Assembly (NCBI GenBank): GCA_963803145.1
Contig: CAWDLW010000018.1
Span: 64,001 to 128,000 of the forward strand
Direction: 5' to 3'
Source of the DNA: Methanotrichaceae archaeon
GTDB lineage: Archaea; Halobacteriota; Methanosarcinia; Methanotrichales; Methanotrichaceae
Length of the DNA stretch: 64,000 bases
In this document: positions 4,977-55,428 of the stretch, piece after piece
Layout of the letters: every line of letters begins with the position of its first letter
Position numbering within the stretch: position 1 is the stretch's first letter
Notes under the pieces: generated by a model
The model's database searches: none
The model's input: the letters and a program-made list of their open reading frames with translations, nothing else
Told to the model about the DNA's origin: nothing
Made by a program: the position numbers and the translations under genes

Positions 4977-5273
4977 TTAATCGATCTTGAGCCTTATGCT
5001 TTTCTCCGAAGTTCGTTTATATGGTACATTAACTATTAGCATGCCGTCTGAGAACCCACCAAGGGCCTTTTCGGGATCTACCGGACCTGGCAATGCAAAA
5101 GCACCTTTAAAGGTTATATCGCCGGCCTTTGCTATCATGTAGAATCCATCGCCAAGGAAGCTAAATTCGATATCTTCTTTTTTTACACCGGGCAGATCTA
5201 CCTGAATGTTAAGACTCTCAGAGTTCTCATCGTTATACATGCATACATCTGGAGCTACAATTCTTTCTACCAT
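4977..5273 (-). CDS. Small heat shock protein, Hsp20/alpha-crystallin family
   Basis: VDLPGVKKEDI and FSDGMLIVNVP motifs. Start placed at MVERI. Confidence 0.85.
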   Translation of the reverse strand: MVERIVAPDVCMYNDENSESLNIQVDLPGVKKEDIEFSFLGDGFYMIAKAGDITFKGAFALPGPVDPEKALGGFSDGMLIVNVPYKRTSEKSIRLKID

Positions 5274-5766
5274 TAAACATCTCCAATAAAGTATACGCGC
5301 AGATACCAATTAAAACTTTTTATTAGAGATCCGTCACAATAATGCAATCAATGGCTAAAATATTCTTTAAATGCTTAGAAAGAACCCCATCCTCGAAGAT
5401 GAAATAATCCCTGTCAGGGTAATATATCGGCACAAAAGCGAAGTGTCAGATAGCCAATCTGGAATATATTTTTTAGAATGTATTGCCCGTTTATCAGCCG
5501 ATATATACATCCAAATATACACTTATATAAACCACTAACACCGTTAGTACACTCATAATACAATTTCATCCTAACATGCCAATAATAGCAAGCGAAGGTG
5601 CATTAGCTCATGTGGTAAAGATCACTGATGTTTTTAAATCGTGATATTATTTTATTTTCTTACTTTACTAATCTGCATTTCAGAACAAAGAAGTCCAACT
5701 TTCTCTTGAAATTCACGGAGACATATAGAGTAAAATTTATATATGATAGATGATAAGATACAATTT

Positions 5767-5832
5767 GGATCCGGGGTTATTCAAACGACTTTTATAGTCA
5801 TCCATCCCCTCAAGATGAATAGACCCGGGTCC
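5767..5832 (+). ncRNA. Candidate small structured RNA
   Basis: TTTATATA box about 25 nt upstream. 17-bp closing stem GGATCCGGGGTTATTCA/TGAATAGACCCGGGTCC with two G-U pairs, plus an inner GACT/AGTC hairpin. Confidence 0.4.
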
Positions 5833-5945
5833 TCCCCTCGAATAATCTTCTCAAAAACTCTCATTGCCTATAGCCATCTTTTTATATCCTGCTTATCATA
5901 AATTCCCTAAATTATTAAGGTTTTGGTGGGGGCTCGGTTGAACCT

Positions 5946-6338
5946 ATGATAGAGATTGATACCAGGAAGCAGGCTGAGGTCATAGATATAACCTCGTCTG
6001 TAGAGAGAGCACTGGCTGAGAGCAAGGTACAAAGTGGAATATGCCTAATTTATACACTTCATACAACTACAGGAATAACTGTAAACGAGGCTGAGGGAGA
6101 CCTTACTCAGGATATTATGAGGCTTATGGCTACACTCGTTCCAGAAGGCGCTGGCTACAGACACGACAGGTCGGATGGGAATGCGTCAGCTCATCTTCGA
6201 GCAGTTCTCATTGGAAACAGTGCCGTTATACCCATTGAAAAAGGAATGCTGGTGCTCGGGACATGGCAGAAAATACTTTTCATTGAGCAGGATGGCCCGC
6301 GGCATCGCAGAGTTTATGTCAAGGCCATCCCGGATTAG
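5946..6338 (+). CDS. YjbQ/UPF0047 family protein
   Basis: HTTTGITVNE, NASAHLR and LGTWQ motifs. Confidence 0.9.
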   Translation: MIEIDTRKQAEVIDITSSVERALAESKVQSGICLIYTLHTTTGITVNEAEGDLTQDIMRLMATLVPEGAGYRHDRSDGNASAHLRAVLIGNSAVIPIEKGMLVLGTWQKILFIEQDGPRHRRVYVKAIPD

Positions 6339-10867: not shown

Positions 10868-12265
10868 CTGTACTCTCCAAGTTTCTCACCAATTTATAAT
10901 CTCCATTCTATATCAAGTCATATCTTATATCCCTGTTCTTTGATTAGATAGAGTAAACCACTATCAGGAACTGGCAAATTAAAGTATTGTAATACATATA
11001 TAAAGGCATCAATGAATGCTTGAGCCTTTATACTATCTATCATATCTCCAATCGTTCTATTTTGTTGATTTCTTTCCACTGGTGGGTTTTTGAGTTCATA
11101 TAAAACGATAGCTGTCCAGACTGAGAAAACCATCTGAATAAATCTTTCAATTGATCGTTTTCCTCTTAATTGATAATCCTTGAATCCCAATTTTTGATTT
11201 GACTCTCTATGAGCAGTCTCAATATCCCACCTATCCTCATAAATAGAAAGGATTTCTACCAAAGATAGTGAACAATTGGTGCTAATAAAGTAGTTGGCGT
11301 CACCATTTTTCTTTTTCTTTGAGATGACTAGCTTTACTTTGCCAATCTTATCTAAGATGACTTCTTTTTCGATTGCATAATATACCTTCTTCTTGCCGCG
11401 AACTTGGACTGTAGTTCTTCTATAATAAATTTCGTCAATCTGATTTGCCAAGTCCCTGACCTGAAAGGACATATCCTTATTTATCCATACCTTTTTATTA
11501 GACTTAATTTCACAAACGACTTGATGACCTAAGTTCAGGCATTTAGTTATAAAATCAGCAGAAAACCACCAGCTGTCGAAAACAACATAAAGACTCAAGC
11601 CTTTTGGTATTTTTAAGGGCTCGATGATATCTTTATAAGCGATTTCTATTTTAGTCATGAAATCTTCACTGCTGTCTATCTCTTTAGTATACATTTTTGC
11701 TTTATGTGGTATAAATATACCTCTAGATTGGAGGACTGAGGTAACAAAGTTGTTACCCATAATATAGTCATCTTTGCAATGATCGTAAAACTTGCCCACG
11801 CCATCAGTACATTTCCCTTCCTTTTCATTATATGTATCGTCTATAATTAATAATATTTTGTCGCTTGCACTTAACTGAAGAGCTTCTATAAATAGATCCG
11901 CACTGCGCTGAGCTACTTCGTTCTCATCCCAGATTGCATCACTAAAGAACCAATTATAGGAAGAGCGTGATTTCGTACATTCTCGATCCTTTGCCATAGC
12001 ATCACTAAGGTGTGCGATGGTCTTAGATTTATCACATACGCTCAGTGCTGAAATCATATCACAGAAAGAATTATAGCTCGGTATGGTGAATAAATCTTTA
12101 AATTCTTTTAGAAATGGCTCTAACTGTAATGGAATCTTAACTAATTTGATCATGACATAGTAAAATACTTTTATAAATAAATCTATTTTGTATCAAGAAT
12201 TAATTTTAATGGTAAAAGAAAATATAGCTATAAATATAAAGCTATGAAAAAGTTGGAGAGTACAG
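10868..12265 (-). mobile_element. Complete IS701-like insertion sequence (1398 bp)
   Basis: 21-bp TIRs CTGTACTCTCCAAGTTTCTCA / TGAAAAAGTTGGAGAGTACAG (19/21 match). 8-bp TSD TACGATTA at 10860-10867 and 12266-12273. AT-rich interior. Confidence 0.92.
10918..12153 (-). CDS. DDE transposase, IS701-like
   Basis: IIDDT, VVFDSWW and Y..RWDIE..HR..Q.LG catalytic motifs. Confidence 0.92.
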   Translation of the reverse strand: MIKLVKIPLQLEPFLKEFKDLFTIPSYNSFCDMISALSVCDKSKTIAHLSDAMAKDRECTKSRSSYNWFFSDAIWDENEVAQRSADLFIEALQLSASDKILLIIDDTYNEKEGKCTDGVGKFYDHCKDDYIMGNNFVTSVLQSRGIFIPHKAKMYTKEIDSSEDFMTKIEIAYKDIIEPLKIPKGLSLYVVFDSWWFSADFITKCLNLGHQVVCEIKSNKKVWINKDMSFQVRDLANQIDEIYYRRTTVQVRGKKKVYYAIEKEVILDKIGKVKLVISKKKKNGDANYFISTNCSLSLVEILSIYEDRWDIETAHRESNQKLGFKDYQLRGKRSIERFIQMVFSVWTAIVLYELKNPPVERNQQNRTIGDMIDSIKAQAFIDAFIYVLQYFNLPVPDSGLLYLIKEQGYKI

Positions 12266-12480
12266 TACGATTATATACAAAGGAAAATTACATACAATCC
12301 AACCTTATACCTGAAAAGGAGTTAATAGGAATCTCGATTAAAAAGTAGTATATTATTTTTATGATATATTGGAGTACCTCCAAAGGGTTTAATGTTCGTA
12401 AAGCGTAGACATCAATCACAGACTTTTAGTACTTAATAATTGAATCAGCTAGCAATATTATTGGCCTATGGGATAGGGAT

Positions 12481-15400
12481 ATGAGGACCACTAGACTTAG
12501 CTCGCATCAAACAGCTTTGATTGCTTTCATCGTTCTGCTGATTATATGGTGGCAAGCGAGCATGTTCTACCAGTCCCAACTAATTTTGGATAAGCAGGAT
12601 CAGGTCTATTCGCAGCTGGATCCTTATGGAAATGCATTAACTATAGCGATAAACCAACGCATTGATACGCTCAACGGCATAGAGGCATTTGTAAATTCAG
12701 AGATGTATCCCTCCGACTCATCATTTGAAACTAAATTCGAAAGATTCGCTAGTAGTGTTCACAACAAAAGTGATGGAATCAGGAACATAGCTGTGGCTCC
12801 AGGAGGAATAGCCAGCTATGTTTACCCCATGAAGGGAAACGAAATCGTTAAGGGTGCCGATTTCTTGCATAGCCCCGAGCCCAAGTATCGCGTTGAAATG
12901 CAAAAAGCCATCGAATTGCATCGTGTAGTTCTGAGCGTTCCTCACCAAATGAAAATTGGGACGCTCGGAATTTTCGCACGGAAAGCCATCTACAGAAATA
13001 ATACCTTCTGGGGGATTATATCATTGGTCCTCGATATTCCTCCAATCATCAAATCAACGGGGTTAAGCTCCAGCACAAACAACTTGGAGCTTGCATTGCG
13101 TGATAGTTCAAAACAGGTATTTTTCGGAAAGGTTTCAGTCTTTAATGCAAGTCCCATCATTTACAGCATTAAGCTTCCAGATGGCAACTGGGAACTGGCA
13201 GGAATACCCACTGGCGGCTGGAATAAATCCATCGAAGAACCTCTAATGTTATTTCAGGCCTCTGGACTGATCATTGTGGTTCTTCTGACATGTCTCATAT
13301 ATTTTATCAGCAGCCGTCAGCATTTTCTATCAATGGCCGTAAAGAAGCAGACATCAGATTTACAAAGAGAGCTTACTGAGCGAATGACCGCCCAGGATGC
13401 GCTTCGAGATTCTGAGGAGATATATCGGCTGGTTGTAGAAAATGCCAATGAAATGATAGTTATCGCTCAGGATGGACTTCTTAAGTTCTTTAATCGTAAA
13501 ACAATCGATTTTACTGGTTATTCAAGAGAAGAACTGATATCCAAAACTTTTTCAGAAATAATCCACCCCGAAGATAGGGAAAAAGTTGCCAAGAACCACC
13601 TGAAAAGACTCAAGGGAGAGGATATCCCAGGGACATATGATTTCAGGATTATTGATAAAAAAGGACGGATCAAGTGGGTAGAGATCAATGCTGTATTGAT
13701 AACATGGCTCGGACAGCCAGCCACATTGAACTTCTTGAATGATATCACTGAGCGTAAACATGCAGAGGAGGAGCTATATAGAAAAGACCATCTGCTCGGA
13801 GGAGTAGCCCTCGCCACAAACATCCTTCTCACTGAAACGAATATAGATTCTGCGATCACTCAAACTCTGGAGATTCTAGGCGCATCCGCAGATGCAGACA
13901 GGGTTTACATCTTCGAGAACCGTGAATCTGGAAATGATGAATATCTTGCAGATCAGCGTTATGAATGGGTCAGAGACATTGGCCAGCCTTCAAAGGATAA
14001 ATCCGATTCCAGGAGCTTTGCCTATTACCCGGCTATGCCCCGTTGGTATGACAAGCTTTCGATAGGATATCCTATCAAAGGCTTGGTTCGAGAATTTCCT
14101 GAATCTGAAAGGAAGACGCTTGAGCATGAAAATATTGTATCTCTCTTGGCTATTCCAATCTTTGTAGCAGGCAAGTTCTGGGGTTTTATCGGCTTCGATG
14201 ATTGCCACTTTGAGCGTGCCTGGACGGGAGCTTACGTATCTATTCTTCAGGCCGCCGCGACCTCTATAGGCGGAGCAATTGCCCGAAGGCAGGCGGAAAA
14301 TAGCCTTAGAAAAGCCAAAGAGGCTGCGGAGTCCGCAACTATAGCCAAATCAGAGTTCCTCGCAAATATGAGCCACGAGATAAGGACTCCGTTAAATGCA
14401 GTTATTGGCCTAACTGGGCTACTTCTAAGAACTGACCTGACCCAAGAACAATCTGATTATGTAGAAACTATTAGAAGCAGCGGTGATTCACTACTATCGC
14501 TTATAAACGATATTCTGGATTTTTCGAAGATAGATAGCGGCAAAATGGAGCTCGAATCCCAGCCGTTTGATCTGCGTTCTTGCATCGAGGACTCCCTAAA
14601 TTTGGTGGCTACGAAGGCGTCTGAGAAAGGCATAGACCTGGCCTATATCATCGACAGCAGCACTCCTGAAATAATTATGGGCGATCCTACAAGACTTCGC
14701 CAGATATTGGTCAACTTACTTAGCAATGCAGTCAAGTTCACAGAAAAAGGCAAAGTAACAATATCAGTCTCTGGCCGGAAGCTTGAGGACAGCAACCATG
14801 AAATCCACTTTGCGATTACAGATACTGGGATCGGTATCCCAAAGGATAGAATAAGCCTCCTTTTCCAATCATTCAGCCAGGTTGATGCCTCCACTACACG
14901 TAAATATGGCGGGACGGGACTTGGCCTAGCCATAAGCAAGCACCTCGTCGAATTGATGGGTGGAAAGATTTGGGCTGAATCAGAGATAGGTAAGGGTTCC
15001 ACCTTCCATTTCACGATTCAGGCTGCAAATACAACCATAAAGCCCAATGGTTCTCAAACAGCTGTTACTCAGGTTCAGCTTGATCCGAAATTAGGCCAAT
15101 CAAATCCTCTGCGTATCCTTCTTGCAGAGGATAATGCAGTAAACCAGAAGGTTGCGAGGTCGATGCTCAAGAAGATCGGATATGAAGCGGATGTTGCTGC
15201 CAATGGGCTTGAAGTGCTCCAGGCATTAGAGCGTCAGCCCTATGATGTGGTTCTTATGGATGTGCAGATGCCAGAGATGGATGGCATTGAGGCAGCCAGA
15301 AGGATACGCGAGCGATGGCATAATGGGCCGAAGATCATTGCTATCACTGCCTACGCCCTTGAGGGTGATAGGGATAGATGCCTCAACGCAGGAATGGATG

Positions 15401-17475: not shown

Positions 17476-17576
17476 GCTGTATCTTTCTCTTTAATGTAAG
17501 GATGATTCGTTTATCTTATCTCCAACAACCATATCGCCTGCTTTCCAGAACATTCCCCCAGCGAGGGGTTAGGGGC

Positions 17577-17772
17577 AGCCCGCGCGGCGACTGAGCGCGC
17601 TAGGAAGAACATTAGGTTTAGTTCCAAAATGCAGAGCGCCAGAAAAATAGCTTAGGCACTATCTTTTGCAGTAATTCTATTCATTTTCCACTTCACATTC
17701 CGGAGCGCCCGCGAGTCGCTTCGCTCCCGCGCTAGCTAAAACGGGGCTGTCGCTCAGTCGCCGCGACGGGCT
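17577..17772. repeat. GC-rich inverted-repeat element (REP/MITE-like) at the left edge of the island
   Basis: AGCCCGCGCGGCGACTGAGCG (17577-17597) pairs with CGCTCAGTCGCCGCGACGGGCT (17751-17772), with one bulged base. Confidence 0.7.
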
Positions 17773-18037
17773 AACGCCCTCCGGGACGGTTCATATGAGG
17801 AGGTACAGGCAGGTTGGTTGACTACCCTTATTGTACAGTGATTTCTGATTTCCATTATAATCAGAAATTCCAAACTCGTTGGCTTACGTTCAGAGAATAA
17901 GAAGATCCAAAACATACTGACCGCTCTGCTCAAAAATTGGTATACATGTCATCTACCAAAACTATATCGTTAGTTACATCATTTGGCTACAATAGAAACG
18001 CATAGATGTTGCAAACCATCAAATAGGTGATGGGAAT

Positions 18038-18788
18038 ATGGTAAAATTGTTATAGTGGATATGGTACAAAATGCAAAGCATGTGGTAAGCAAGTAAGCTT
18101 GAATCCAAAAAGGCTGAAAGAGATAAAAGGTGGTTATACGCTAGATAATGTGATCAAGAAAGGAATCGAGATCGCTAAGCAAAATATACCTGTCTCTCAA
18201 AAATTGACTGTGCCAAAATCCGAGGCAATCAATATTCAAAAAAAGGAGACTGCCCATATTGAAGCCATTGGATTCGTTTATCTATTGCTGGATTGTTCTG
18301 GAAGCATGGAAGGCCAAAAGCTCAAACAGGCTAAGATCGGAGCATTGAAATTTGCAGGTGAAGCGATCGCTAAAGGATATCGCGTGGGATTGATCCAATT
18401 TGCATCAAGAGCCGTCCTTTCATGCGAACCCCAGCGAACACTTTCACATTTAGATAGCTCGCTAAGAGAGATACGGGCCAGTGGATCAACAAACATGACC
18501 GATGCTATCCAGTTGGCAACCCAAAAGCTTTTGGACAAAGGGCCACTTCGGAGTATATACATTGTAACTGATGGCATGCCAGATAATCCACAAACAGCTT
18601 TAGACGCCGCTCAACGAGCAAAGAAACATAGAATTGATATTATCACTATTGGGACAGATGACGCCGATGATGATTTTCTTAAAAAAATTGCCACGCGAAG
18701 AGAGCTAGGAATAAAAGTCTCACGAGATCAATTTGAGAATACAATTTCTTCGGTAGCAAAAATGTTGCCCCTACCTCCCGGCCATTAA
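18038..18788 (+). CDS. vWA-domain protein, possibly frameshifted just after the start
   Basis: MIDAS motif DCSGS...GST...VTDG. GGTGA plus ATG at 18038 is out of frame by 1 nt with the open frame CYSGYGTKCKACGKQ that leads into the track ORF (TTG at 18099). Confidence 0.85.
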
Positions 18789-18800
18789 AGGAGTTAGATC

Positions 18801-20909
18801 ATGTCAGAAGATTGGGAGATGAAGTGGAAGGATTATTACGATATCTTAGGTGTCAAGAAGAATGCTAGTTCAGCTGAAATTGGGAAAGCTTTTAAATTAA
18901 TTTCAAAATTGTTCCATCCGGACAAGGTTGATAAGGAACTTGAAGAATGGGCAAAAACACGATTTCAGGAAATTGAAGAAGCTCGCAGAACTTTAGTAAA
19001 TAGCGAAATAAGAAAGAAATATGATTACGCGTGGGATAAACGTGATTGGGAGATGAAGTGGAAGGATTATTACGATATCTTAGGTGTCAAGAAGAATGCT
19101 AGTTCAGCTGAAATTGAGAAAGCTTTTGAACTAATTTCAAAATTGTTCCATCCGGACCTGGTTGATAAGGAACTAGAAGAATGGGCAAGAACACGACTTC
19201 AGGAAATTGAAGAAGCTCGTAGAACTTTAGTAAATAGCGAAATAAGAAAGAAATATGATTACGCGCGGGATAAACATGAAGACATTAGTACTGGACAGAG
19301 CTATGCAAGTGATTCAACAGCTAATCCTCCGAAATTCAAAGTTGATCCTCCTTACATTTACATTAGTGATTTGGAAGCTGGACAATCAAAAAATTTTCCG
19401 TTCGTTGTTAGAAATGAAGGTGGACCGTACAATGGCCAAATAGATGTCAGTAGTTCTAACTCCTGGATCAAAATAGCCGATAAATATAGGTTAGATCCTA
19501 ATGATGTACTACCTTATAAGGCTGATATAGAGGTCCACGGATCGGAAGGGGACAAAACTTACCTTGGAGAAATCGAAGTCACTTTAGAAAATGAAACAAT
19601 TCGTGTCCAGGTGGAACTTAAAACAAAACCAAAAGCCGAAGCCAGAAAAAGAGAAAAATCTCAAGCGGTTCCAAACATTAATAAATATTCAAATATTTCG
19701 AGGATATTGTCTGGGAAAAGAAAATATCTATTATCAATTCTCGCTGCACTTATGCTTATTTTCGCTGCACCCATACTTATTTTGATTTATTTTGAACATA
19801 ATAATTCATTTTCAAATTCAGTAATAATTCAATCCGATGATGGTAATAAATTGTGGAATGAAATCTTCCCCCATAATGATCTTAGGTGTGTTAGGCAGAC
19901 CAGTGACGGGGGGTATATTGCAGTAGGCGATACAAAGCCTTGGATTTTTCATTGTGCATGGTTGATCAAAACAGACATGTATGGCAACAAGCAATGGGAC
20001 AGATCATTCGGCTCTGTTGATTCTGGACGATCTGTTCAGCAAACCCGCGATGGTGGATATATTATAATCGGCAGCGCCGATTACAGTAACGATCAAAATT
20101 ATGCATGGATAATTAAGACTGATGCTAGCGGCAATAAGCAATGGGTTAAAGATTTTCGCGGACCAGATAATAGTTGGAAAGGTTTGGGAGAATCGGTTCA
20201 ACAGACTAGTGAGGGTGGTTATGTATTGCTAGTAGCACAAGAGAATGATCTATTATTGATAAAGACCGATGCTAATGGCAATGAACTGTGGTATAATAGC
20301 TTGGTAAAATATGAGAAATATGAGAATCCGCCTTATAATCAGCCCACCATTTATGGAAAATCCGTTCAGCAGACTAATGATGGTGGATATATCATAGTCG
20401 GTTCAGTAGTTTCCCAAGATACTGATAGTTTGGATGCGGGGATAATCAAGACTGATACAGAAGGCAAGATATTGTGGGATAGAACCTTCGGAGGACCCGA
20501 AATGGATGGAGGCTTTTCAGTAAGACAGACAAGTAATGGCGGCTACATAATTCTAGGTCACTCGGATTATAATGCTTGGCTGATCAAAACAGATGCCTTT
20601 GGCAATAAACTATGGAACAAATCCCTTGGAATTGATATGATGTGGTCCTGGACCGGAGATGCTCTATGGCAGACTAGGGATAGTGGCTATATTATAACAG
20701 GCAGGTCTCAAGGCAATGCATCGCTGGTCAAAACGAACGCTAATGGCGATAAAATTTGGGGTAAGACTTTTTTGAAAGATCATGATAGCTGGGGCAATTC
20801 AGTGCAGCAGACCGATGATGGAGGCTACATTATTGCTGGATGCACATTTGTAGATACAGGGAAATTTAATGGCATGCTGATTAAGACCGATGCAAACGGA
20901 AACGTGTAA
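18801..20909 (+). CDS. Protein with two J domains, an Ig-like domain, one TM helix and a C-terminal beta-propeller
   Basis: Two DYYDILGV...HPD units, TM segment LLSILAALMLIFAAPILILIYF, and about 7 QQT.DGGYII...IKTD..GN..W repeats. Confidence 0.88.
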   Translation: MSEDWEMKWKDYYDILGVKKNASSAEIGKAFKLISKLFHPDKVDKELEEWAKTRFQEIEEARRTLVNSEIRKKYDYAWDKRDWEMKWKDYYDILGVKKNASSAEIEKAFELISKLFHPDLVDKELEEWARTRLQEIEEARRTLVNSEIRKKYDYARDKHEDISTGQSYASDSTANPPKFKVDPPYIYISDLEAGQSKNFPFVVRNEGGPYNGQIDVSSSNSWIKIADKYRLDPNDVLPYKADIEVHGSEGDKTYLGEIEVTLENETIRVQVELKTKPKAEARKREKSQAVPNINKYSNISRILSGKRKYLLSILAALMLIFAAPILILIYFEHNNSFSNSVIIQSDDGNKLWNEIFPHNDLRCVRQTSDGGYIAVGDTKPWIFHCAWLIKTDMYGNKQWDRSFGSVDSGRSVQQTRDGGYIIIGSADYSNDQNYAWIIKTDASGNKQWVKDFRGPDNSWKGLGESVQQTSEGGYVLLVAQENDLLLIKTDANGNELWYNSLVKYEKYENPPYNQPTIYGKSVQQTNDGGYIIVGSVVSQDTDSLDAGIIKTDTEGKILWDRTFGGPEMDGGFSVRQTSNGGYIILGHSDYNAWLIKTDAFGNKLWNKSLGIDMMWSWTGDALWQTRDSGYIITGRSQGNASLVKTNANGDKIWGKTFLKDHDSWGNSVQQTDDGGYIIAGCTFVDTGKFNGMLIKTDANGNV
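18810..19277 (+). repeat. Near-identical 234-bp tandem duplication encoding the two J domains
   Basis: Copies at 18810-19043 and 19044-19277 differ only by scattered substitutions. Confidence 0.95.
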
Positions 20910-20972
20910 TCTTGTTCGCACCTAAATTAGTGTTAAGATAGAAGACCCATACTTTTAAATCAATATCGTTTA

Positions 20973-21145
20973 CTGTAGTCTCCAAGTTTTTGATTTTGCA
21001 TACAAAATATAAACAATCGGCTGATAAAATAATACTATATTTTATGATGATAGCACGAAATAGGTATACAACATTATCTAATTATGTTAAAATTAAATTC
21101 GGTTTATAAAGTTGGCGGTTGCAGCTAAAAACTTGGAAACTACAG
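20973..21145. mobile_element. 173-bp MITE related to the IS701-like element
   Basis: TIRs CTGTAGTCTCCAAGTTTTT / AAAAACTTGGAAACTACAG (18/19 match). 7-bp TSD TCGTTTA at 20966-20972 and 21146-21152. No ORF inside. Confidence 0.9.
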
Positions 21146-21436
21146 TCGTTTAGTTAAATATTCAAGCTTTCTGTAAAAATGAAGCGAAGTGGTATCATCT
21201 CATTTTTATGGCACGGCCTGGTATTTTAATCTCTAGTTTTAGGCAGTAGAATAAGATTCTCGTATTTTATATTTATATAACAAAATGGTGATTTTTTAAG
21301 CACATATTTCATTACTTGCCTGAATTTTTGATCCAAGACATATAGTAAACTATAATTACCAATTGCTATACTTGCTTTCCATTAGGATAGAGACGCTCTA
21401 TAAACGAGCGATGATTAGATGGAAAAAGAAGTAACT

Positions 21437-21628
21437 ATGTCCACAAAATTCAATCATTGCCCAAACTGAGGGAGAATACCAGGCAAAAGCCTCTTTGGCG
21501 GTACACATATTAACATATTTGAATGTAAAAAATGCGGCTCTTGCTATTGTAATAAGTGTGGTGATGGGCGATGCCCTAATTGTGGTAGCAGGGAGAACAA
21601 GAAGGCTGGAGAAGTTTATGAGAGATAA
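21437..21628 (+). pseudogene. Small Cys-rich RING-like Zn-finger gene with an in-frame TGA at a Cys position
   Basis: Translation MSTKFNHCPN*GRIPGKSLFGGTHINIFECKKCGSCYCNKCGDGRCPNCGSRENKKAGEVYER. TGA at 21467-21469. Confidence 0.75.
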
Positions 21629-21640
21629 GGAGATAGGACT

Positions 21641-21757
21641 ATGGAGACACAAACTAAGGGGATATTAGCCCTTGCCCTGTTTAGTATTGGGACCATATCC
21701 ATGTGGCGGCAAGCATTTCGATCAACTATAATTAATGTTGCTCCTCCTCAGAGGTGA
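21641..21757 (+). CDS. 38-aa hydrophobic micro-protein
   Basis: AGGAGA RBS. Translation METQTKGILALALFSIGTISMWRQAFRSTIINVAPPQR. Fills the operon gap. Confidence 0.45.
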   Translation: METQTKGILALALFSIGTISMWRQAFRSTIINVAPPQR

Positions 21758-21763
21758 TCAAAA

Positions 21764-22333
21764 ATGGGATTCCTAGATAAGCTCAAAGGCAAAGAAACAA
21801 AGAAGGATAAACCTCAAACCGAAGCGACAAACGCAAATTCCTCATCTGAATCAAAGAGCGATCCCTACGATTTGAATCTTGATGGAGTTGACAGAGGATA
21901 TTCAGCCGTGGTTAGAAGAGATAAACAAGGAAAATCAAGTGGTGACTGGCAGCTAGATGGCATTGGGATCGTTTATCATGGGGGCAGTATTGATGAGGCC
22001 ATCGAGTGTTTTAATAAGGCATTAAGAATTGACCTCGAAGACCAAGGCGCTTGGTTAGGCAGAGGATACTGCCTGATGTCACTTGGGGTCTATGACAAAG
22101 CAATTGCTTGCTTCAAAGAGATCATTAAACTAGATCCAGATGTAGTTGCAGATTGTTGTTTTGCAGAGGCATGGAACAAGATGGGGCAATGTTATGAGGC
22201 TATGGGTAACGAAGGAGAAGCAAGAAACGCTTATTCTAAGGCTAGTGAATGGGGACACACAAAAGATGGCGATACATATCCTGAACCATATCCTGGGTTA
22301 GACAGAAGCCCTCTAAAAAAGATCCCTGATTAG
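21764..22333 (+). CDS. TPR-repeat protein
   Basis: EAIECFNKAL, AWLGRGYCL..LG.YDKAI and AWNKMG repeats. GAGGTGA RBS. Confidence 0.85.
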   Translation: MGFLDKLKGKETKKDKPQTEATNANSSSESKSDPYDLNLDGVDRGYSAVVRRDKQGKSSGDWQLDGIGIVYHGGSIDEAIECFNKALRIDLEDQGAWLGRGYCLMSLGVYDKAIACFKEIIKLDPDVVADCCFAEAWNKMGQCYEAMGNEGEARNAYSKASEWGHTKDGDTYPEPYPGLDRSPLKKIPD

Positions 22334-22704
22334 ATCATCCAACGAATTTGAGTATGTATATCTTCTTTTTTGTATCTTCGGAGCCAGAATACTATTTTAT
22401 AAATACCTTCTTCGATTGCAAAGGCATGGGTTGGCGCTCCAGATTCTATGCCTATACAAACAACGCCCAGTGCTATTATAGATGTGTTATTCACCGCGTA
22501 GCTAAGAATTTCAAGAAAGATACCAAAAGAGATTATTTGGGGGCGCATAATGGCGTAGGTTACGGCGCCATTTCAGTCAAGTATATCCATTCAGGGCCTT
22601 CATTCAATACGAGTTCATATCTTCAGCAGCGCCGCACACCAGACAAATAATCCATGCACCTCCGATTCTTTTATTATTGTTGTAGTAGTATCAATTGGCA
22701 TCAT

Positions 22705-22848
22705 TTAACTCATTTGTTTTCCACATATTTTGCATTTAGAGCCATATTTATAAACGCAATTCTTACAAGCAAAATGTCCATTTAGACATACTTTTCCACC
22801 AGAGACTTCTGTCTCTTTTCCGCAAATATCACATGTTCTTTTTGGCAT
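22705..22848 (-). CDS. 47-aa standalone RING-finger (C3HC4) protein
   Basis: Translation MPKRTCDICGKETEVSGGKVCLNGHFACKNCVYKYGSKCKICGKQMS gives C-x2-C-x11-C-x3-H-x2-C-x2-C-x7-C-x2-C. TATA-like TTTAAATA upstream. Confidence 0.85.
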   Translation of the reverse strand: MPKRTCDICGKETEVSGGKVCLNGHFACKNCVYKYGSKCKICGKQMS

Positions 22849-22920
22849 ATCTGCATCCCTCAAAATATTTATATTTAAATTGTATTAGTCCATAGATGCC
22901 GGTTCTGTATATGCGAATAT

Positions 22921-22943
22921 GTGCGGGGAATAAGACCCCCGCA
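22921..22943. other. Perfect 8-bp GC hairpin between the two RING paralogs
   Basis: GTGCGGGG-AATAAGA-CCCCGCAC. Confidence 0.6.
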
Positions 22944-23013
22944 CCAACTATGCTAGGCATGACCTAAAGCACACTAACTAGCCGGATCGAGGTAATTCAT
23001 GTTCAGGCCAACT

Positions 23014-23153
23014 TCACCTTATAATGGTACCGCATATTTTACATATATTACCGTGGTTTTTTCGGCAACTTTCGCATGCAAAATGGCCCTTGGCACATAC
23101 TCCGCCGCCCCATGCCTCTCTCTTCCGCATATATCACATTTTCTTTTTGTCAT
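23014..23153 (-). pseudogene. Frameshifted paralog of the C3HC4 RING protein
   Basis: Translation MTKRKCDICGRE..[frameshift]..GGGVCAKGHFACESCRKNHGNICKICGTIIR*. Length 140 nt (3n+2). Confidence 0.8.
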
Positions 23154-23224
23154 GTTTTCATTCCCCTCATACGTTATATCTAGACTACATTTCTTTTATA
23201 ACTATAAACTAGATACTATAAACA

Positions 23225-23584
23225 TCAGGTGGCACCAGGTTTTATAACTTCTTCACCATTCCATTCTTTGGCTAGCTTTAAATGCCATGCAAGTTTATCA
23301 GGCACTTTCCTAATATCGCCCTCTAAATTAGCTATTAAAGCTATACGATCACGTTTAAATTCTATTCCATTCACAAAATCGTAAGCATAAAAATATTTAG
23401 TCTTTCCAGTTTCAGGATCGCTCGGCTCTATCCAATATAAAGCCGGTAAACATACGTTATATTTTTCTAGCAATTGTTTTTCATCATCAGTCAAAGTTAA
23501 TTTTGCATTCAATACAAATTCCAAACCCGATCCAGATAAGATGCCTTTCTTTGAGTTTTGCGTCCTGCGAAGATGCAATTCCAT
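23225..23584 (-). CDS. Hypothetical protein
   Basis: Open frame MELHLRRTQ...WNGEEVIK, co-oriented with the RING genes. GAGG upstream. Confidence 0.7.
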   Translation of the reverse strand: MELHLRRTQNSKKGILSGSGLEFVLNAKLTLTDDEKQLLEKYNVCLPALYWIEPSDPETGKTKYFYAYDFVNGIEFKRDRIALIANLEGDIRKVPDKLAWHLKLAKEWNGEEVIKPGAT

Positions 23585-23639
23585 ATAGACCCTCAATTGA
23601 TTTTTTAGGCATGTTCAACCTCAATTAAAAGCGGCAAAC

Positions 23640-23772
23640 TTACCTCGCCGAAGTATTACAGTGTGGGCATTTTCCATTTCTCAGGTGTGTAGCATACCCA
23701 AGCTTCACAACGCGGACAATATTTTATACTTATCTCACGTTCTTCGCTACAGTAAAAATACTTATGTCTCAT
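23640..23772 (-). pseudogene. Frameshifted small RING-like Zn-finger gene
   Basis: GAGGGGAG RBS. Translation MRHKYFYCSEEREISIKYCPRCEAWVCYT[frameshift in ACACAC run]LRNGKCPHCNTSAR*. Confidence 0.65.
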
Positions 23773-24249
23773 ATTTCTCCCCTCTTGATGTAAAATATTT
23801 CCTTTTTGGGTTTATCAGTAATAATACGGTATATTTAAACCTACGCTAATCTAATTATCTATAATAAAAGTATGATAAAAACTCATTTATATAAAATCCT
23901 TACCTGGGGTAGAATAGCTGGAATATACACGTTGATCCTACCGCCTTGAGTATGTATAACCTGTAAACTTTCCTTTTATTTTTAGCGTCTTCAAAGCCAA
24001 GATACTGTTTTTATAAACATCTTTTCGACCTACAAAGGCATGGATTTGCGCTCCGGATTATACAGTGCATTTCTATTTTAGCCGCTGTCGAAAAATCTCT
24101 ATCGGTCAATTATCGAAAATTCGTTCTATAAAGTATATGAACGATAAGTTAGGAAGAGGGCTAGCTAGGTCAATCTTTAAGAATTCTGCGAGTTGTATAA
24201 CCTGCTACGGTTAATTGGCGAGGTGAGTATGTTTAACATCAAAATAGCT

Positions 24250-24301
24250 AAGAGTCTGAAGTTCCTTGCCTCTCCAAATCCCATACCTTGAGCATTTTAT
24301 C
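24250..24301 (-). pseudogene. WD40-repeat remnant
   Basis: DKMLKVWDLE[frameshift]GKELQTL matches the WD40 blade consensus DKTLKVWDLxxGKELxTL. Confidence 0.55.
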
Positions 24302-24391
24302 CCATAATTCGATACCGTATCGTAAAAGCCGAGGGAGCGCTTCATATCAACATGGTCGGAATACGAGCCAATTCGCTTCTTAGGATGTTGA

Positions 24392-25492
24392 CTAGAAAAT
24401 TCTCAGCCCCCCTCTCACAAACTCTTCCACCAGTTCGTCAGTGCTCTCGAGGTAGTAATCGATGATAGACTCAATTTTTGATTTCAATGCCTCTGTGAGC
24501 TGAAGATCTCCAGCAATCTTCACGCCTTTCAATAGAGGTTGATCAATCGGCGAGCCGATCTTACTCACCAAAGTCACGTAAGCCTCTTTTACCCCCTCAA
24601 GCTCCGCAATGTCCGAAGCTGCGCGCATCCCCAAGACGTTATAGATCTTTCCAACATGGCTGACTGGATTTTTGCCAGCTATCGCCTCCATCGTCATCGG
24701 CCTCATGGGAGTTATCAGGCCATTTCCGCGATTGCCCCTGCCAGTTGCTCCGTCATCGCCCATCTCAATTGATGTGCCTGTAACTGTGAGGTAAAGGTTA
24801 TCTTCTGTATCTGCTGCATTCACGCTCACATTCGCATCTGCGGCATTCTTTAGAACCGCCTCCCTAACACGGTCCTTGGTTTCGTAATAATCGTCACGCG
24901 ACAGAATATATTTTGAGAGCATTGCGGCAGCTACTACTATATCGAGATCATCTCCCATGCGCACAGCCATAATCTTGGTATCCTCACCCACTCCACGGAT
25001 GCCATGTATCACATCATCCAGATCCAGAACAAGCCTTTCAATAGAATCCAGGGGTGCAAAACCTACGCCGATTGAAGTATCGTTCGCGCCACGACCAATC
25101 AGGCTCCGGAGCTCAGGAGCCCCCTCCGCAATCCTAGGCTCGATCCTGAATTCCTTAAGGCTCTTTAAGGTCGCGCTAAAAAAAGAGGTGACCGCATCAT
25201 CGATAATCTCATTTACAGCTTTCGCAGAGGGAGTTGTTGCTCTCCCTCCAACCACAACCGATGGCGGTGCAAGTATCGATCCTCCTCCGAACTCAGGACG
25301 GCTCTTGCCAGCAATTATGAGAACCTTATCGACATTATAATGCATTATTTGGCCGAACTCCTCCAAATAAAAACGACATAATGCTACAGATATCGATTCT
25401 GAGACCCCATCTGCAAGTGTATCCGGGTGGCCAATGCCTTTGCGCTCAACCGCTTCGAAAGGAGGAACTATATGCTTCTGGATTGTGATCAT
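24392..25492 (-). CDS. mat: S-adenosylmethionine synthetase, archaeal type
   Basis: [34 protein letters not shown] and [11 protein letters not shown] motifs. Confidence 0.95.
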
Positions 25493-43642: not shown

Positions 43643-44723
43643 TAGTCCAAAACCAAACATTTATTACCTACATCAACAATAGAACTCTTGTGTCCCATCC
43701 AGAACAAATTCATATTAAAAAGCATATGATCGTCGAAGAGCTTGATAGAAGGATAAAGACTTTAGAGATTAGTACAAGAGTGCTAAAACGTTTATACTTC
43801 ATTAAACATAGATACAACGGAAAAAGCGTAGAAGAAGCATGCGATTTAGTCGGAGCAAAAAAGCCTGTTGGATATATTTGGCAAGATCGTTGGAATAATG
43901 AAGGATATAACGGACTGATTCCACGATTTGCTGGTGGTAGGCCATCAAAACTCTCAAAAGATCAAAAGGATAGACTACTTGAGCTTCTTGAACAAAAAGA
44001 CAATTGGGCTTCTGAAGAGGTTAGAGATCTCATCTATAGAGAGTTTAATGTAGAATATACTTTGAAGCAAATAAGAATTATTTTAAAGAAATATGGAATG
44101 AAATGCGCTAAGCCTTATCCTCATGACTACCGCAGGCCAGAAAATGCAGAAGAAATTTTAAAAAAAGATTACCTGCTATAGAGGAAAATATAATAATTGG
44201 TTTCATAGATGAGGCATCTCCTCAGACGACTTCTAACACGCAAAAGTTATGGTCGTTCTATAAGCCAGAAATAGCTAAAAATACCAGTAAATATAAAGCA
44301 AATGCTTTTGGTTTTTATCCTCTTAATGGATCACCTGTAATAGAATTCAAAGAGGAATCAAAAACTTGGGATTTTTGCGACTTTCTCAGAGATATAAGAA
44401 TTGCAAACCCTGAAAAGACAATAATCGGACTTGCTGATAACTCTAGGCCACATAAAACACAAGATACATTAGTGTTCGCTGAAGAATGCGATATCAAATT
44501 GGTATTTTTGCCGCCATATTCTCCTGATTTGAATCCTATTGAGTTTATCTGGAAAAGCATTAAGCGAATTATTTCCCGCAATTTTATCAAAGATGCTAAT
44601 CATTTGAAGGAGATAATAGAAAGTGCTTTCCTTAAATACGCTGCAAAGCTGAGCTTTGCACGAGGATGGATCGAGCGCTTTCTTAGTTCTGAAGATAAGT
44701 CTAAAGTGTTTGGTTCTTAACTA
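43643..44723 (+). mobile_element. IS630-family insertion sequence
   Basis: Imperfect TIRs TAGTCCAAAACCAAACA / TGTTTGGTTCTTAACTA, flanked by TA at 43641-43642 and 44724-44725. Confidence 0.88.
43690..44720 (+). CDS. IS630 transposase split over two frames (HTH ORF and DDE ORF)
   Basis: GGRPSKL HTH region. After the A7 run at 44160-44166 the -1 frame reads GFIDEASPQ...ADN...FLPPYSPDLNPIE. Confidence 0.88.
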
Positions 44724-44816
44724 TAGTCCATCATTCCTCGGACTACTTTCGCCCTATTCTTAGTAATCCCTTGGTCCTGTAAGCGCGAAGCCAATATATC
44801 TCACTATGCTCGGCGT

Positions 44817-45860
44817 TTACTGTTCCTGTTTGTAGTAGAGATAGTACCTCAGAGGATTGTCTGCAGATGTTTCATCCTGGTCGGCGGTTCTGATGTGGAT
44901 GTCATCCATAAGCGTGATATCTTTGTCCTTGCTAAGGGTTATCGGATTGTCCTTGTTATCCATCACGATAGTCATCGTAGCCGGATCAACCGATCTGATG
45001 GACATCTTGTCATATTGCTGGCCCGTTGTGATTGATGTGGACGTATCGGATATCTGGAATACTCCATCGACAGTAGCGATATTGCTGTTAGCGTTACCGA
45101 ACACATTCTTGAAGTGGACTGCAATATTGACCATGCCTTTGGTGTTTCCGAGGTCTTTTTTGTAGTAGTATGTCTCATCGCCGATATTGGCATTTTCTAT
45201 GGAAGGCTGAATGACCTTGGAATCAACGACTTGACTGTTCTTGCTCAGCTCGACGTAGACCTTATTGCTGTCAGCATCTATATTCTTGATGGAGAGGTTA
45301 TAGCCCTCCTCCAGCTCCAGAGGATTCGAAGAGTTGAATGTCTGCTCAGTATCGTCATCGATCAGGATCTCACTGATTTGTCCATTGGCCATTAGGTTTC
45401 TATTATCAGATTTATCATATAGGAATGGAACCGACCGGCCAGTAGCATTCATATCCTCAGTTGCATTGCTGTCATACGCGGCAAAGTAGTCTCCTCCTAG
45501 AAATCCAATCTCCTCATACTGACCCCACTGCCCAAAGCTAAAATCAACCGGCAGGGCCTCTGTAGTATAGACTGCGCCTCTGTTGCCGTTAACATCAGGT
45601 TGATCACTCAGCACAGCGCTTGCCCAATCTTGGCTAATATCGGACAGCCTGAAGGTAAGTGTCTCAGTTCCGATATCGTTATCTATATCGTAGTAGAAGC
45701 CGGGAAATGTGTAGCTGTCCCATGTGACCTCGCTCTCGCTAAGATCATGAATGTCGCTCGGTATGTCCACCTCCTGAGCCCGAACTTCCCTGACCACTGC
45801 GAATAAAATAACTATTGCTAAGATACAAATTAGAGCTGTATTCTTCATTTCCAATCTCAT
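44817..45860 (-). CDS. S-layer domain protein (DUF1608 type)
   Basis: W...FPGFYYDID.....E.L, IGFLG..YFA, LEL.EGY.L and LRYY motifs. Confidence 0.88.
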   Translation of the reverse strand: MRLEMKNTALICILAIVILFAVVREVRAQEVDIPSDIHDLSESEVTWDSYTFPGFYYDIDNDIGTETLTFRLSDISQDWASAVLSDQPDVNGNRGAVYTTEALPVDFSFGQWGQYEEIGFLGGDYFAAYDSNATEDMNATGRSVPFLYDKSDNRNLMANGQISEILIDDDTEQTFNSSNPLELEEGYNLSIKNIDADSNKVYVELSKNSQVVDSKVIQPSIENANIGDETYYYKKDLGNTKGMVNIAVHFKNVFGNANSNIATVDGVFQISDTSTSITTGQQYDKMSIRSVDPATMTIVMDNKDNPITLSKDKDITLMDDIHIRTADQDETSADNPLRYYLYYKQEQ

Positions 45861-54407: not shown

Positions 54408-55034
54408 TTGAGGGCCGAGGAGATCGTGCAGAAAGGTTCGCCAAATAAAGACGTACATCCTTCGATATGCAAAGACGCAGCTCCAGGGATTATATTTGAG
54501 GAAACTTACGAGCCTGCCGAAGATACAATGCTATTGCTCAAAGCTGCGCTAGATGAGGCCAAGCCGGAAGATAGGGCGATTGAGATCGGCTGTGGGCGTG
54601 GGCTCATATCGAGGGAGCTGTCCAAGAAAGTACGAAGCATTATTGCCACAGATATAAATCCTCATGCAGTTAGATTTGTAAGAAGCTATGGACTTGATGT
54701 CGTCAGGGCAGATATTTTTGGGGGCATTAAGGCTAAATTCGACCTAGTGATATTTAATCCACCCTACTTACCCACAAAAGAGGAAGAAAGGATCAGTGGA
54801 TGGATCAACTATGCCTTAGACGGCGGGGAGAACGGCAGAGAGACAATAAATAGATTCATAGAGGATCTAAAAGATCATCTCGACCCAAATGGCCGATGCT
54901 TGTTGCTGCTGTCAAGCCTAAGCGGTCAGGAAGAGGTGAAGGAAAAGGCACAAGTTGAGGGATTTAAAACCATTGAGGTCGCGAACGAAAGATGCTTTTT
55001 CGAACAACTTCATGTACTTAAATTAGAACGATAA
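54408..55034 (+). CDS. HemK2/MTQ2-family protein methyltransferase
   Basis: YEPAEDT.LL, EIGCG.G, FNPPYLP and ALDGG..GR motifs. Confidence 0.9.
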   Translation: MRAEEIVQKGSPNKDVHPSICKDAAPGIIFEETYEPAEDTMLLLKAALDEAKPEDRAIEIGCGRGLISRELSKKVRSIIATDINPHAVRFVRSYGLDVVRADIFGGIKAKFDLVIFNPPYLPTKEEERISGWINYALDGGENGRETINRFIEDLKDHLDPNGRCLLLLSSLSGQEEVKEKAQVEGFKTIEVANERCFFEQLHVLKLER

Positions 55035-55428
55035 ATAAGGATATGTCAGGTTAGCGAAATATATACAAAGAAGATAATAGATCGCTAGCTTGAGAGCGCA
55101 CTTAATCTAAATAATTATTTTTGACGTTGTGATAAGAAGAAATAACGATTAATCATCTGCAAAAACAAATATTAATGATATAATTTTAGAATAAACTCAC
55201 AGAGCAAGTGTATTTCTTTTGTGTAGAGGAACTGCTCCGAAACTTAACTGCAATTTTATAATTCAATGCGAATCGATAATCTCAGAATATGTATCTGAAT
55301 TGACCGATAGATTATAAGTCGAACCTATTGCTGAGTTCGAGCAAAATTGTTCTAAAACAATAAACTTATATGTAAGGAGCTACAAGCCGACTTTGGAGAC
55401 TGTAATACTATCTATAGGTTGATTTACT

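Follow-up and report, generated by a model that had tools for sequence, protein, structure and literature searches.

The genome of a Methanotrichaceae archaeon (GenBank assembly GCA_963803145.1) carries a 6,916-bp island whose core is a pair of genes that encode a vWA-domain protein and a membrane protein with J domains. The island is located in a 64,000-nucleotide stretch of contig CAWDLW010000018.1 (positions 64,001 to 128,000 of the forward strand); this whole stretch is referred to here as the window, and positions are counted from its first nucleotide. The assembly (G000) comprises 4.13 Mb in 51 contigs, with a contamination estimate of 6.8%, and the housekeeping genes of the window include those for enolase, a DUF5611 protein, an archaeal-type MAT, and PAN. 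The island extends from 17476 to 24391, that is, from the stop codon of the DUF5611 gene (17475) to that of the MAT gene (24392). In addition to the pair it contains genes for a TPR protein, an uncharacterized protein designated c6, and small zinc fingers, one of them an intact RING-type finger designated RING1. With moderate confidence, the core of the island is read from its gene content as an Hsp70-recruiting vWA adaptor module at the membrane, which was horizontally acquired and has partly decayed.

The DUF5611 gene (PF18446; E value, 4.8e-29) and the archaeal MAT gene (24392 to 25492; PF01941; E value, 8.5e-120) are convergent and only 10 to 87 bp apart in five relatives (G001, G002, G004, G005, and G008), and the block between them in the genome studied here is therefore an insertion. 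G001 and G002 are both of the same-genus genomes, and the island is absent from both. The GC content of the island is 39.1%, compared to 46.1% in the remainder of the window, and it is below that of all 115 sliding windows of equal length (minimum, 0.392). An earlier note on this DNA (the original prediction) had pointed to a low-GC block between the DUF5611 gene and mat and had proposed a comparison with relatives that lack it; the block was borne out, and the comparison identified it as an insertion relative to the five relatives. No ortholog of the vWA gene was found in 40 relatives (best match, E = 1.8e-7 with 33% identity), the N-terminal 330 residues of the J-protein matched only the J domain of canonical DnaJ in relatives, and a sample of 400 other genomes of the phylum contained no c6. 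Scans for tRNAs and Rfam families and the list of open reading frames (ORFs) yielded no tRNA, Rfam family, or integrase-like ORF inside the island, and no public sequencing run was listed for positions 18000 to 24300. The island is horizontally acquired DNA between two conserved convergent genes.

The vWA protein (18099 to 18788, plus strand; 229 amino acids; TTG start) matched PF00092 with 71.3 bits against a cutoff of 23.8 and has an intact metal ion-dependent adhesion site (MIDAS), which confirms the vWA gene that had been predicted on the plus strand. The MIDAS residues D65, S67, S69, T131, and D158 are invariant among 20 family members, including the island protein. The family has 533 homologs at an E value of ≤0.001, with ∼50% identity across domains of life; its members are stand-alone proteins of ∼200 to 225 amino acids with copine-like Pfam matches. 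Pfam gave no TerY_C match in the island vWA protein. In a phylogenetic tree of the family the island protein was sister to that of locus L033, from a metagenome-assembled genome (MAG) of the Methanosarcinales (SH-aLRT, 98), and phyla were intermixed inside clades.

The J-protein (18801 to 20909, plus strand; 702 amino acids) begins with two J domains, J1 (18810 to 19043) and J2 (19044 to 19277), which are followed by a conserved middle region, a single hydrophobic transmembrane segment (approximately 19725 to 19793; residues ∼309 to 331), and an outer repeat or propeller-like domain (19818 to 20906, plus strand). PF00226 was matched with 108.5 bits in two stretches, and an HPD motif is present in each J copy. 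J1 and J2 are a 234-nucleotide tandem duplication with 95% identity at the DNA level and 71 of 78 residues identical, and the duplication is recent. In the test for class I or II DnaJ proteins only PF00226 was matched, and the NCBIfam DnaJ models scored 106.5 against a cutoff of 377.2; on these grounds the protein was assigned to class III. The outer domain has a roughly sevenfold repeat and matches the beta-propeller part of CylK (E value, ∼5e-5). Paralogs of the outer domain are present in 39 of 41 related genomes, with up to 56% identity, whereas the N-terminal part has no paralog in related genomes besides canonical DnaJ. Because only the outer part has paralogs in relatives, the protein is considered a chimera of foreign J, middle, and transmembrane regions with a surface domain of the host lineage. 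The architecture that had been proposed for this gene, two J domains followed by an Ig domain, a transmembrane segment, and a propeller, was thus retained apart from the Ig domain: the only candidate in the J-protein was a PapD-like match at E = 0.14, and 1 of 35 homologs matched an Ig-like family.

The occurrence of this gene pair in other genomes was examined with a scan for the vWA protein, limited to one genome per species, which returned 84 relatives, and 80 loci were kept on the basis of vWA similarity alone. The archaeal sources fell into three groups (a Methanosarcinales MAG, Thermoplasmata, and Altiarchaeota), and the bacterial sources, from more than 10 phyla, included Planctomycetota (many of them anammox genomes), Chloroflexota, Acidobacteriota, Patescibacteria, Verrucomicrobiota, Nitrospirota, cable bacteria, Alphaproteobacteria, and Actinomycetota, among others. 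In 68 of the 80 loci an ORF with a J domain was located on the same strand, no more than 400 nucleotides from the vWA gene. Forty of the 68 J genes were downstream and, as in the island, coded for an N-terminal J domain followed by a transmembrane helix and an outer domain; 27 were upstream and coded for N-terminal transmembrane helices, a coiled-coil region, and a C-terminal J domain; and in 1 locus J and vWA shared one frame. Pfam DnaJ was matched by 34 of 35 and 25 of 26 scanned neighbors of the two J types, and neither DnaJ_C nor DnaJ zinc-finger families were among the families listed for scanned J neighbors. The island J-protein itself matched the J neighbor of vWA in 43 of the 80 loci (tblastn), often as far as residue ∼300. 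The metagenome copies P0003 and P0004 are 79 to 83% identical to the island copy. Only four changes between the two J architectures were required on the vWA tree over 68 labeled rows, a count that indicates clustering and not proof of coevolution because relatives share architecture labels. No third recurring family was found among 106 same-strand operon neighbors of the pair, and in Brocadia-type genomes the pair is syntenic with ychF and a cyclophilin gene. Judged from these neighborhoods, the vWA and J genes appear to form a module of two genes that is transferred jointly among archaea and bacteria. The original prediction had named as its refutation a finding that homologs of the island's components never co-occur elsewhere; they do co-occur, with J adjoining vWA in 68 of 80 loci.

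Outer domains differ among the homologs and include PG_binding_1, TonB_C, PD40, PEGA, YARHG, and the InlB B-repeat. This variety looks like envelope anchoring rather than ligand sensing, and the surface-sensing role proposed earlier is doubtful, since the homologs' outer domains are for the most part of envelope-binding kinds, PG_binding_1, TonB_C, PEGA, and PD40 among them.

Two loci connect the vWA family with Hsp70 itself. A single 983-amino-acid protein from a Thermoguttaceae MAG (L110:5637-8585) consists of an Hsp70 nucleotide-binding domain (NBD), TIR_2, and a vWA domain of this family; it is possible that this fusion is an immune variant of the module. At locus L091 a C-terminal-J protein and the vWA protein stand in a row with a 418-amino-acid protein that is an Hsp70 NBD only. 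A search of the host genome for extra Hsp70 genes, also suggested by the original prediction, returned a single dnaK with an adjoining dnaJ on contig C31, and the only other J domains of the genome are the two of the island. The suggestion of Hsp70 recruitment fits the J domains, the Hsp70-TIR-vWA fusion, and the adjacent Hsp70 gene. Because of the adjacency statistics, the two gene orders, the Hsp70 fusions, and the spread across domains of life, these comparisons support the proposal that the vWA protein and the membrane J-protein would work together with Hsp70.

Small zinc fingers accompany the pair in the island. RING1 (22705 to 22848, minus strand; 47 amino acids) is intact, with the spacing C-x2-C-x11-C-x3-H-x2-C-x2-C-x7-C-x2-C. 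The RING consensus is C-x2-C-x(9-39)-C-x(1-3)-H-x(2-3)-C-x2-C-x(4-48)-C-x2-C, and RING1 has this C3HC4 eight-ligand spacing; the eight ligands are invariant in homologs of four phyla. In an alignment of 63 family members C6, C9, C21, H25, C28, and C39 were invariant, and C31 and C42 were conserved in at least 90%. RING1 scored below the Pfam gathering cutoffs (Sina_RING, 18.3 to 18.7 bits with a cutoff of 29.3; Prok-RING_2, 18.2 bits with a cutoff of 22.4). Among the 63 family members, zf-RING_5 was matched by 53 at E ≤ 0.01 (best E value, 2.8e-5), zf-C3HC4_3 by 27, and Prok-RING_4 by 21 at E ≤ 0.01 (best E value, 3.4e-6), all likewise below the cutoffs. The AlphaFold2 (AF2) model of RING1, which was made without zinc, has a pLDDT of 94.3. 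In a comparison for the cross-brace treble-clef fold, its top Foldseek rows were the RING domains of RNF8, TRIM21, TRAF6, and PML, with probabilities of 0.9 to 0.99, root mean square deviations of 2.2 to 3 Å, and TMq values of 0.54 to 0.72, and with E values (0.09 to 0.3) that are weak because the query has only 47 residues.

The other fingers of the island are broken. RING2 (23014 to 23153, minus strand) is a paralog of RING1 with 52% identity that occupies two overlapping frames and is frameshifted; it has a 4-nucleotide deletion compared to the related locus L117, in which the ORF is open. A C-terminal remnant of a RING gene (18045 to 18098, plus strand; 18 codons) is in frame with the vWA ORF, with a TAA codon upstream at 18042 to 18044. 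It is an inverted match to RING1 over 39 nucleotides (77%), and in a protein search of the same genome it matched RING1 residues 29 to 47 with 63% identity and one TAA. The Cys-rich zinc-ribbon micro-ORF at 21437 to 21628 (plus strand; 63 codons) has an in-frame TGA at 21467 to 21469 and is 50% identical over 52 amino acids to an intact 62-amino-acid ORF located 230 nucleotides upstream of vWA in L036. The TGA was interpreted as a nonsense change because the L036 homolog has Cys at that position, and the micro-ORF is probably a pseudogene. Selenocysteine was also considered for this codon and was not adopted; ARAGORN detected no tRNA-Sec among 40 tRNAs of an assembly whose tRNA set is incomplete. 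A zinc-ribbon micro-ORF of a different type (23640 to 23772, minus strand) is split over two frames and has lost one Cys; L073 has an intact 49-amino-acid homolog, 340 nucleotides upstream of vWA (E value, 1.8e-4).

Thus, RING1 alone is intact, and four of the five zinc-finger ORFs are broken. The original prediction had counted four micro-RING or zinc-finger genes. Their zinc-finger nature was upheld, and the count was not: there are five ORFs or remnants, only one of them intact, and they are of three types. The gene predicted as RING-like on the plus strand is a Cys-rich finger of the zinc-ribbon type; two of the three predicted on the minus strand are RING genes (RING1 and the frameshifted RING2), and the third is the frameshifted ORF of the other type. 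The partial decay that had been suspected was evident from the deletion in RING2 and the broken zinc-ribbon ORFs.

Homologs of the RING were found with a pattern scan of metagenome contigs, a word-index search having given no candidate; the scan returned 233 metagenome relatives, and neighborhoods were taken from the best 80 loci. RING homologs are present in L035, L071, and L093 among the 80 vWA loci, and strong vWA and J neighbors are present in L147, L154, L158, and L171 among the 80 RING loci. L158 and L171 have an intact RING-vWA-J order, of which the remnant at 18045 to 18098 is a trace in the island. DnaJ-like CxxCxGxG mini-proteins are encoded in L036, L064 to L066, L068, and L093. Small ORFs on the same strand that contain two or more CxxC motifs numbered 17 in 215.8 kb within 1.5 kb of the pair versus 11 in 673.2 kb beyond that distance, an approximately 5-fold-higher density near the pair, although the 17 probably include spurious ORFs and L064 to L066 are kin. 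Almost all of the parts occur together in L093, from a Verrucomicrobiota MAG, which encodes J-proteins of both the C-terminal and the N-terminal type, with vWA between them, as well as a DnaJ-type finger, c6, RING, and a Clp_N protein. In L035, from an Altiarchaeota MAG, an additional protein of 192 amino acids (1077 to 1652) is encoded between the vWA and RING genes; its N terminus resembles the one of the vWA protein, and it has a TerY_C metal-binding domain (E value, 7.5e-9).

The c6 protein (23225 to 23584, minus strand; 119 amino acids) belongs to an uncharacterized family with 1011 representatives at E ≤ 0.001, and it had no match in Pfam, NCBIfam, or PADLOC. Its AF2 model is an alpha/beta fold with a pLDDT of 90.8. 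The best Foldseek E value was 0.17, and the best VIA-align Z score over 48,161 chains was 4.7, which is within the stated noise of the tool; its Atlas features fell into unnamed clusters only. Homologs of c6 are located beside vWA/J in L033, L049, and L093 and beside RING in 8 of the 80 RING loci. The TPR protein (21764 to 22333, plus strand; 189 amino acids) has three repeats and matched TPR_1 with 70.6 bits against a cutoff of 27.8 (E value, 6.2e-20), in accordance with the TPR gene predicted on that strand. A TPR-type cluster was the most common neighbor of the RING, occurring in 25 of 80 RING loci, and 19 of 28 scanned proteins, the island protein included, matched TPR_1.

A close relative is L117/L118, with 87 to 92% DNA identity over the RING genes, in which c6, RING2, RING1, and a 313-amino-acid TPR protein are encoded on one strand. 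The island TPR gene is a shortened ortholog, with an N-terminal DNA match to that of the 313-amino-acid protein, and is inverted relative to it. L118 is a 6.5-kb metagenome contig with a different neighborhood and no vWA/J within ∼2.8 kb; in its RING2 an Asp replaces one ligand Cys. Because c6-RING-TPR also stands alone in L118, the zinc fingers, c6, and TPR were treated as a second, interacting module. The co-occurrence of accessories that the original prediction had wanted examined was found in that RING, both other fingers, and c6 have homologs beside vWA/J pairs in other phyla.

The ends of the island are rich in repeats. The left junction (17476 to 18044) contains two dispersed repeat families, at approximately 17480 to 17640 and at 17697 to 17890, and a DNA search of the same genome with this junction gave 49 matches, corresponding to ∼30 copies of the first repeat and ∼17 of the second. 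The right junction (23913 to 24391) contains a dispersed repeat, which makes up most of 23913 to 24243 and has ∼20 copies in the genome, and a 32-codon frame on the minus strand (24251 to 24346) with a WD-like motif. Another copy of the same repeat is located at 22363 to 22448. The three families are each ∼100 to 300 nucleotides long and are possibly similar to miniature inverted-repeat transposable elements; a high GC content and internal inverted repeats characterize the first two. The 32-codon frame had been described as a WD40 remnant, a description that did not hold: apart from a VWDL motif it had no Pfam WD40 match at E ≤ 1 and no paralog. A comparison of this frame with the propeller repeats of the J-protein revealed no similarity (best E value, 1.8). 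The predicted micro transmembrane ORFs were likewise left without support.

Other features of the window and the genome were recorded in passing. Further low-GC patches (35 to 38%) are located at 5001 to 6000, 11001 to 13000, 44001 to 45000, and 55001 to 56000. The DUF5611 orthologs of G004 (C134:8483-8794) and G006 (C143:1537-1839) each have one in-frame TAG, which could represent pyrrolysine read-through or a broken gene. A second archaeal MAT-like gene in the genome (C4:21763-22773) is ∼47% identical to the first, and most relatives searched likewise have two. An ORF of 337 amino acids on the minus strand of another contig (C25:48142-49155, the same as L197:5143-6156) has a PF00240 match of 100.8 bits (E value, 1.3e-28); it consists of a hydrophobic leader, a near-canonical ubiquitin domain, and ∼240 more residues, and it is flanked by transposase-like ORFs. 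Such an ORF is unusual for a methanogen-type archaeon, and the contamination estimate of 6.8% applies to this assembly.

The vWA, J-protein, RING1, c6, and TPR genes are intact in the host genome, and the following mechanism could be envisaged for their products. The vWA protein would be a cytoplasmic, TerY/copine-like protein with an intact MIDAS. The J domain, duplicated here, would stimulate the ATPase of the single DnaK of the host at the membrane, and vWA would be the client or adaptor arm, gripping a target through its MIDAS, so that the pair would correspond to MoxR-vWA chaperone pairs, with Hsp70 as the driving ATPase. Through its outer domain the J-protein would fix the complex to the envelope, and this domain would here have been swapped for a surface repeat domain of the host lineage. 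The 47-amino-acid RING, the two zinc-ribbon types, the CxxCxGxG fingers found elsewhere, c6, and TPR would be facultative accessories, probably extra client-binding or bridging parts, with c6-RING-TPR also occurring as a separate module. The insertion, the domain content, the conserved adjacency, the fusions with Hsp70 in other genomes, and the decay were observed, whereas in this scheme we infer from gene content and neighborhood that the proteins bind, that they depend on DnaK, and what their client and biological role would be.

A number of observations count against the proposal of an Hsp70-recruiting adaptor module. Twelve of the 80 vWA loci had no adjacent same-strand J gene: 3 were at contig ends, 1 had a J gene on the opposite strand, 1 was the Hsp70-TIR-vWA fusion, 1 was a receiver-receiver-vWA fusion, and 6 had none. 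The hidden Markov model for J domains on which the figure of 68 of 80 depends was built from the same neighbors, for which the Pfam scans serve as the independent check, and related loci, such as those of ∼14 anammox genomes, inflate the counts. The accessories are uncommon near the pair: c6 was detected in only 3 of 80 vWA loci, RING was likewise found in only 3 of 80 vWA loci, strong vWA and J neighbors were present at only 4 of 80 RING loci, and none of the 80 vWA loci was matched by the island TPR in tblastn. The four broken zinc-finger ORFs, the TTG start of the vWA gene, and the absence of the island from same-genus genomes fit relaxed selection. A broader proposal is that the vWA/J pair is an undescribed, widely transferred Hsp70-dependent adaptor system in which stand-alone micro zinc fingers assume the client-holding function of the built-in DnaJ zinc finger and the 47-amino-acid RING acts independently of ubiquitin; this is tentative, and we regard it as rather doubtful. 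If it were true, a minimal RING would have a nonubiquitin role tied to Hsp70 and TPR, like CHIP quality control in eukaryotes.

It could be argued that the island instead encodes an antiviral or conflict system, in which the vWA/J pair would detect invaders at the cell envelope and employ Hsp70 to trigger an effector or an abortive response, in the manner of the conflict systems with chaperones known from multicellular prokaryotes. The patchy spread of the pair with phyla mixed within vWA clades, the strain-specific insertion at a repeat-rich spot, and the fusion of a family member to Hsp70 and TIR in L110 would all be expected of such a system, and in theme the pair resembles the GAP1-N2 systems, which combine vWA, HSP70/GrpE, and components fused to DnaJ or TPR (PMC7159879). 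A few operon neighbors also have the appropriate domains (ArdC-N, 2 of 106; MPTase-PolyVal, 1 of 106; ADP-ribosylglycohydrolase, 2 of 106). However, the core pair lacks an effector domain, the only match of the five island proteins in PADLOC-DB 2.0 was PDC-M64C (E value, 0.003; 15.6 bits), and no PADLOC family was matched by more than 1 of the 106 neighbors. The synteny with ychF and cyclophilin in Brocadia-type genomes looks like housekeeping, viral contigs gave two weak matches (29 to 36% identity) and plasmid and phage records none at E ≤ 1e-10, and GTPase, kinase, and PP2C were absent from the 25 most common neighbor families. Thus, a defense function seems unlikely. It seems still less likely that the island is a graveyard of unrelated fragments that accumulated at a hot spot of recombination and now share no function. 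Such an origin would account for the four of five broken zinc-finger ORFs, the three dispersed repeat families within the island and at its ends, and the TPR gene that is shortened and inverted compared to its close relative, and the c6-RING2-RING1-TPR arrangement of L118 without vWA/J within ∼2.8 kb indicates that the two halves are separable. Yet the vWA protein (229 amino acids) and the J-protein (702 amino acids) have long, unbroken frames that retain every motif residue, each component has homologs next to vWA/J pairs of distant phyla, L093 by itself combines J, vWA, J, a DnaJ-type finger, c6, and RING, and the remnant upstream of vWA repeats the RING-vWA-J order of L158 and L171.

The original prediction had also raised protein tagging, in which the micro-RINGs would be E3 ligases of a prokaryotic ubiquitin-like system and the island would mark proteins for PAN and the proteasome. 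In favor of this, the C3HC4 spacing of RING1 is complete, its model is confident and RING E3 domains head the list of structural matches, Prok-RING_4 is matched by 21 and zf-RING_5 by 53 of the 63 family members at E ≤ 0.01, and pan is 1.3 kb past the island edge. The host search for E2, ubiquitin-like protein (Ubl), and JAB genes that had been suggested gave a mixed outcome: the genome has one Prok-JAB gene and one ubiquitin-like domain, whereas UQ_con and Prok-E2_B were unmatched, which is weak evidence given that control genomes were equally silent. The ubiquitin-like domain protein has an N-terminal hydrophobic leader, lacks a C-terminal Gly-Gly, and is encoded on another contig; no conjugatable Ubl was found. 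Furthermore, E1, E2, and Ubl families are not among the 25 most common Pfam families of the 106 operon neighbors, TPR proteins are the neighbors found most often beside the RING (25 of 80), every Pfam RING match is under the curated cutoffs, and pan belongs to the conserved backbone. Because pan is outside the insertion, its nearness to the island, which had already been suspected to be coincidental, is coincidental. Tagging is therefore considered highly improbable, and an Hsp70-recruiting adaptor module at the membrane is the preferred reading of the pair.

J-domain proteins set where and on what Hsp70 acts, and to our knowledge few specialized bacterial or archaeal J-proteins have a known client. 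A conserved unit of vWA and a membrane J-protein, with a range that includes anammox bacteria, cable bacteria, Patescibacteria, and methane-cycle archaea, would be a testable case of localized Hsp70 action. The family of 47-amino-acid RINGs, with 233 metagenome relatives and no E2 partner, could offer a handle on RING roles before or outside ubiquitin signaling. In the host genome itself, a strain-specific island has kept an intact vWA/J pair among decaying accessories.

DjlA is a membrane-anchored class III J-protein of bacteria. Like DjlA, the island protein has a J domain on the predicted cytoplasmic face, lacks a G/F region, zinc finger, and DnaJ C-terminal domain, and presumably localizes DnaK activity. 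The NCBIfam DjlA model matches only the J domain (E value, 8.5e-10), and, unlike DjlA, the island protein has an N-terminal, duplicated J domain and a large outer domain; we know of no DjlA that is the partner of a vWA gene. The prokaryotic RING families Prok-RING_2 and Prok-RING_4 were reportedly described by Burroughs, Iyer and Aravind in 2011. RING1 resembles them in its C3HC4 ligand spacing, and perhaps in a model that may be cross-brace-like, and differs in being a bare domain of 47 to 55 amino acids whose neighbors are TPR, c6, or vWA/J and not E1, E2, JAB, or Ubl. The TerY-type vWA proteins and the TerY-P triad are said to go back to Anantharaman et al. in 2012. The island protein is similarly a small, stand-alone, copine-like vWA protein, and L035 encodes an adjacent, separate TerY_C protein. 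The triad is mentioned as kinase-PP2C-vWA in PMC7159879. In contrast, the island vWA lacks TerY-C, neither kinase nor PP2C is among the 25 most common neighbor families, and the constant partner is a J-protein.

MoxR AAA+/vWA pairs, of which RavA-ViaA and CbbQ-CbbO are examples, provide a close parallel to the proposed logic. In both cases a stand-alone MIDAS vWA protein is encoded beside the engine of an ATP-driven chaperone or its activator, and the vWA protein of the island may likewise be an adaptor. However, there is no MoxR or AAA+ ORF in 17476 to 24391 and no MoxR among the 25 most common neighbor families; here a J domain would bring in Hsp70 as the ATPase in trans, and the partner is predicted to be membrane anchored. 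The pair would parallel the MoxR-vWA theme with a different ATPase. The chaperone-adaptor theme of MoxR-vWA is described in general terms in PMC7159879. The GAP1-N2 systems (Kaur et al. 2020, PMC7159879) include vWA, HSP70 (NBD-only forms among them), and DnaJ- or TPR-fused beta-rich repeat proteins, and they are also similar in having zinc ribbons, an anchor in the membrane, and outer domains that bind peptidoglycan or are of the PEGA type. Their defining components are GAP1 and a GTPase that carries N-terminal zinc ribbons, and tubulin is often present, whereas no island ORF matches a GTPase family and the most common neighbors of the pair include only the syntenic YchF of the Brocadia group. 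The taxa also differ, with the pair here in archaea, anammox bacteria, Patescibacteria, and Acidobacteriota. No description of a vWA/J gene pair was found in the literature that was searched, including passages of PMC7159879, PMC8195603, and PMC7824862; supplements or earlier RING and Ter surveys may mention it. The domain types are all known, and by analogy the logic of the vWA/J pair resembles that of known chaperone-adaptor pairs.

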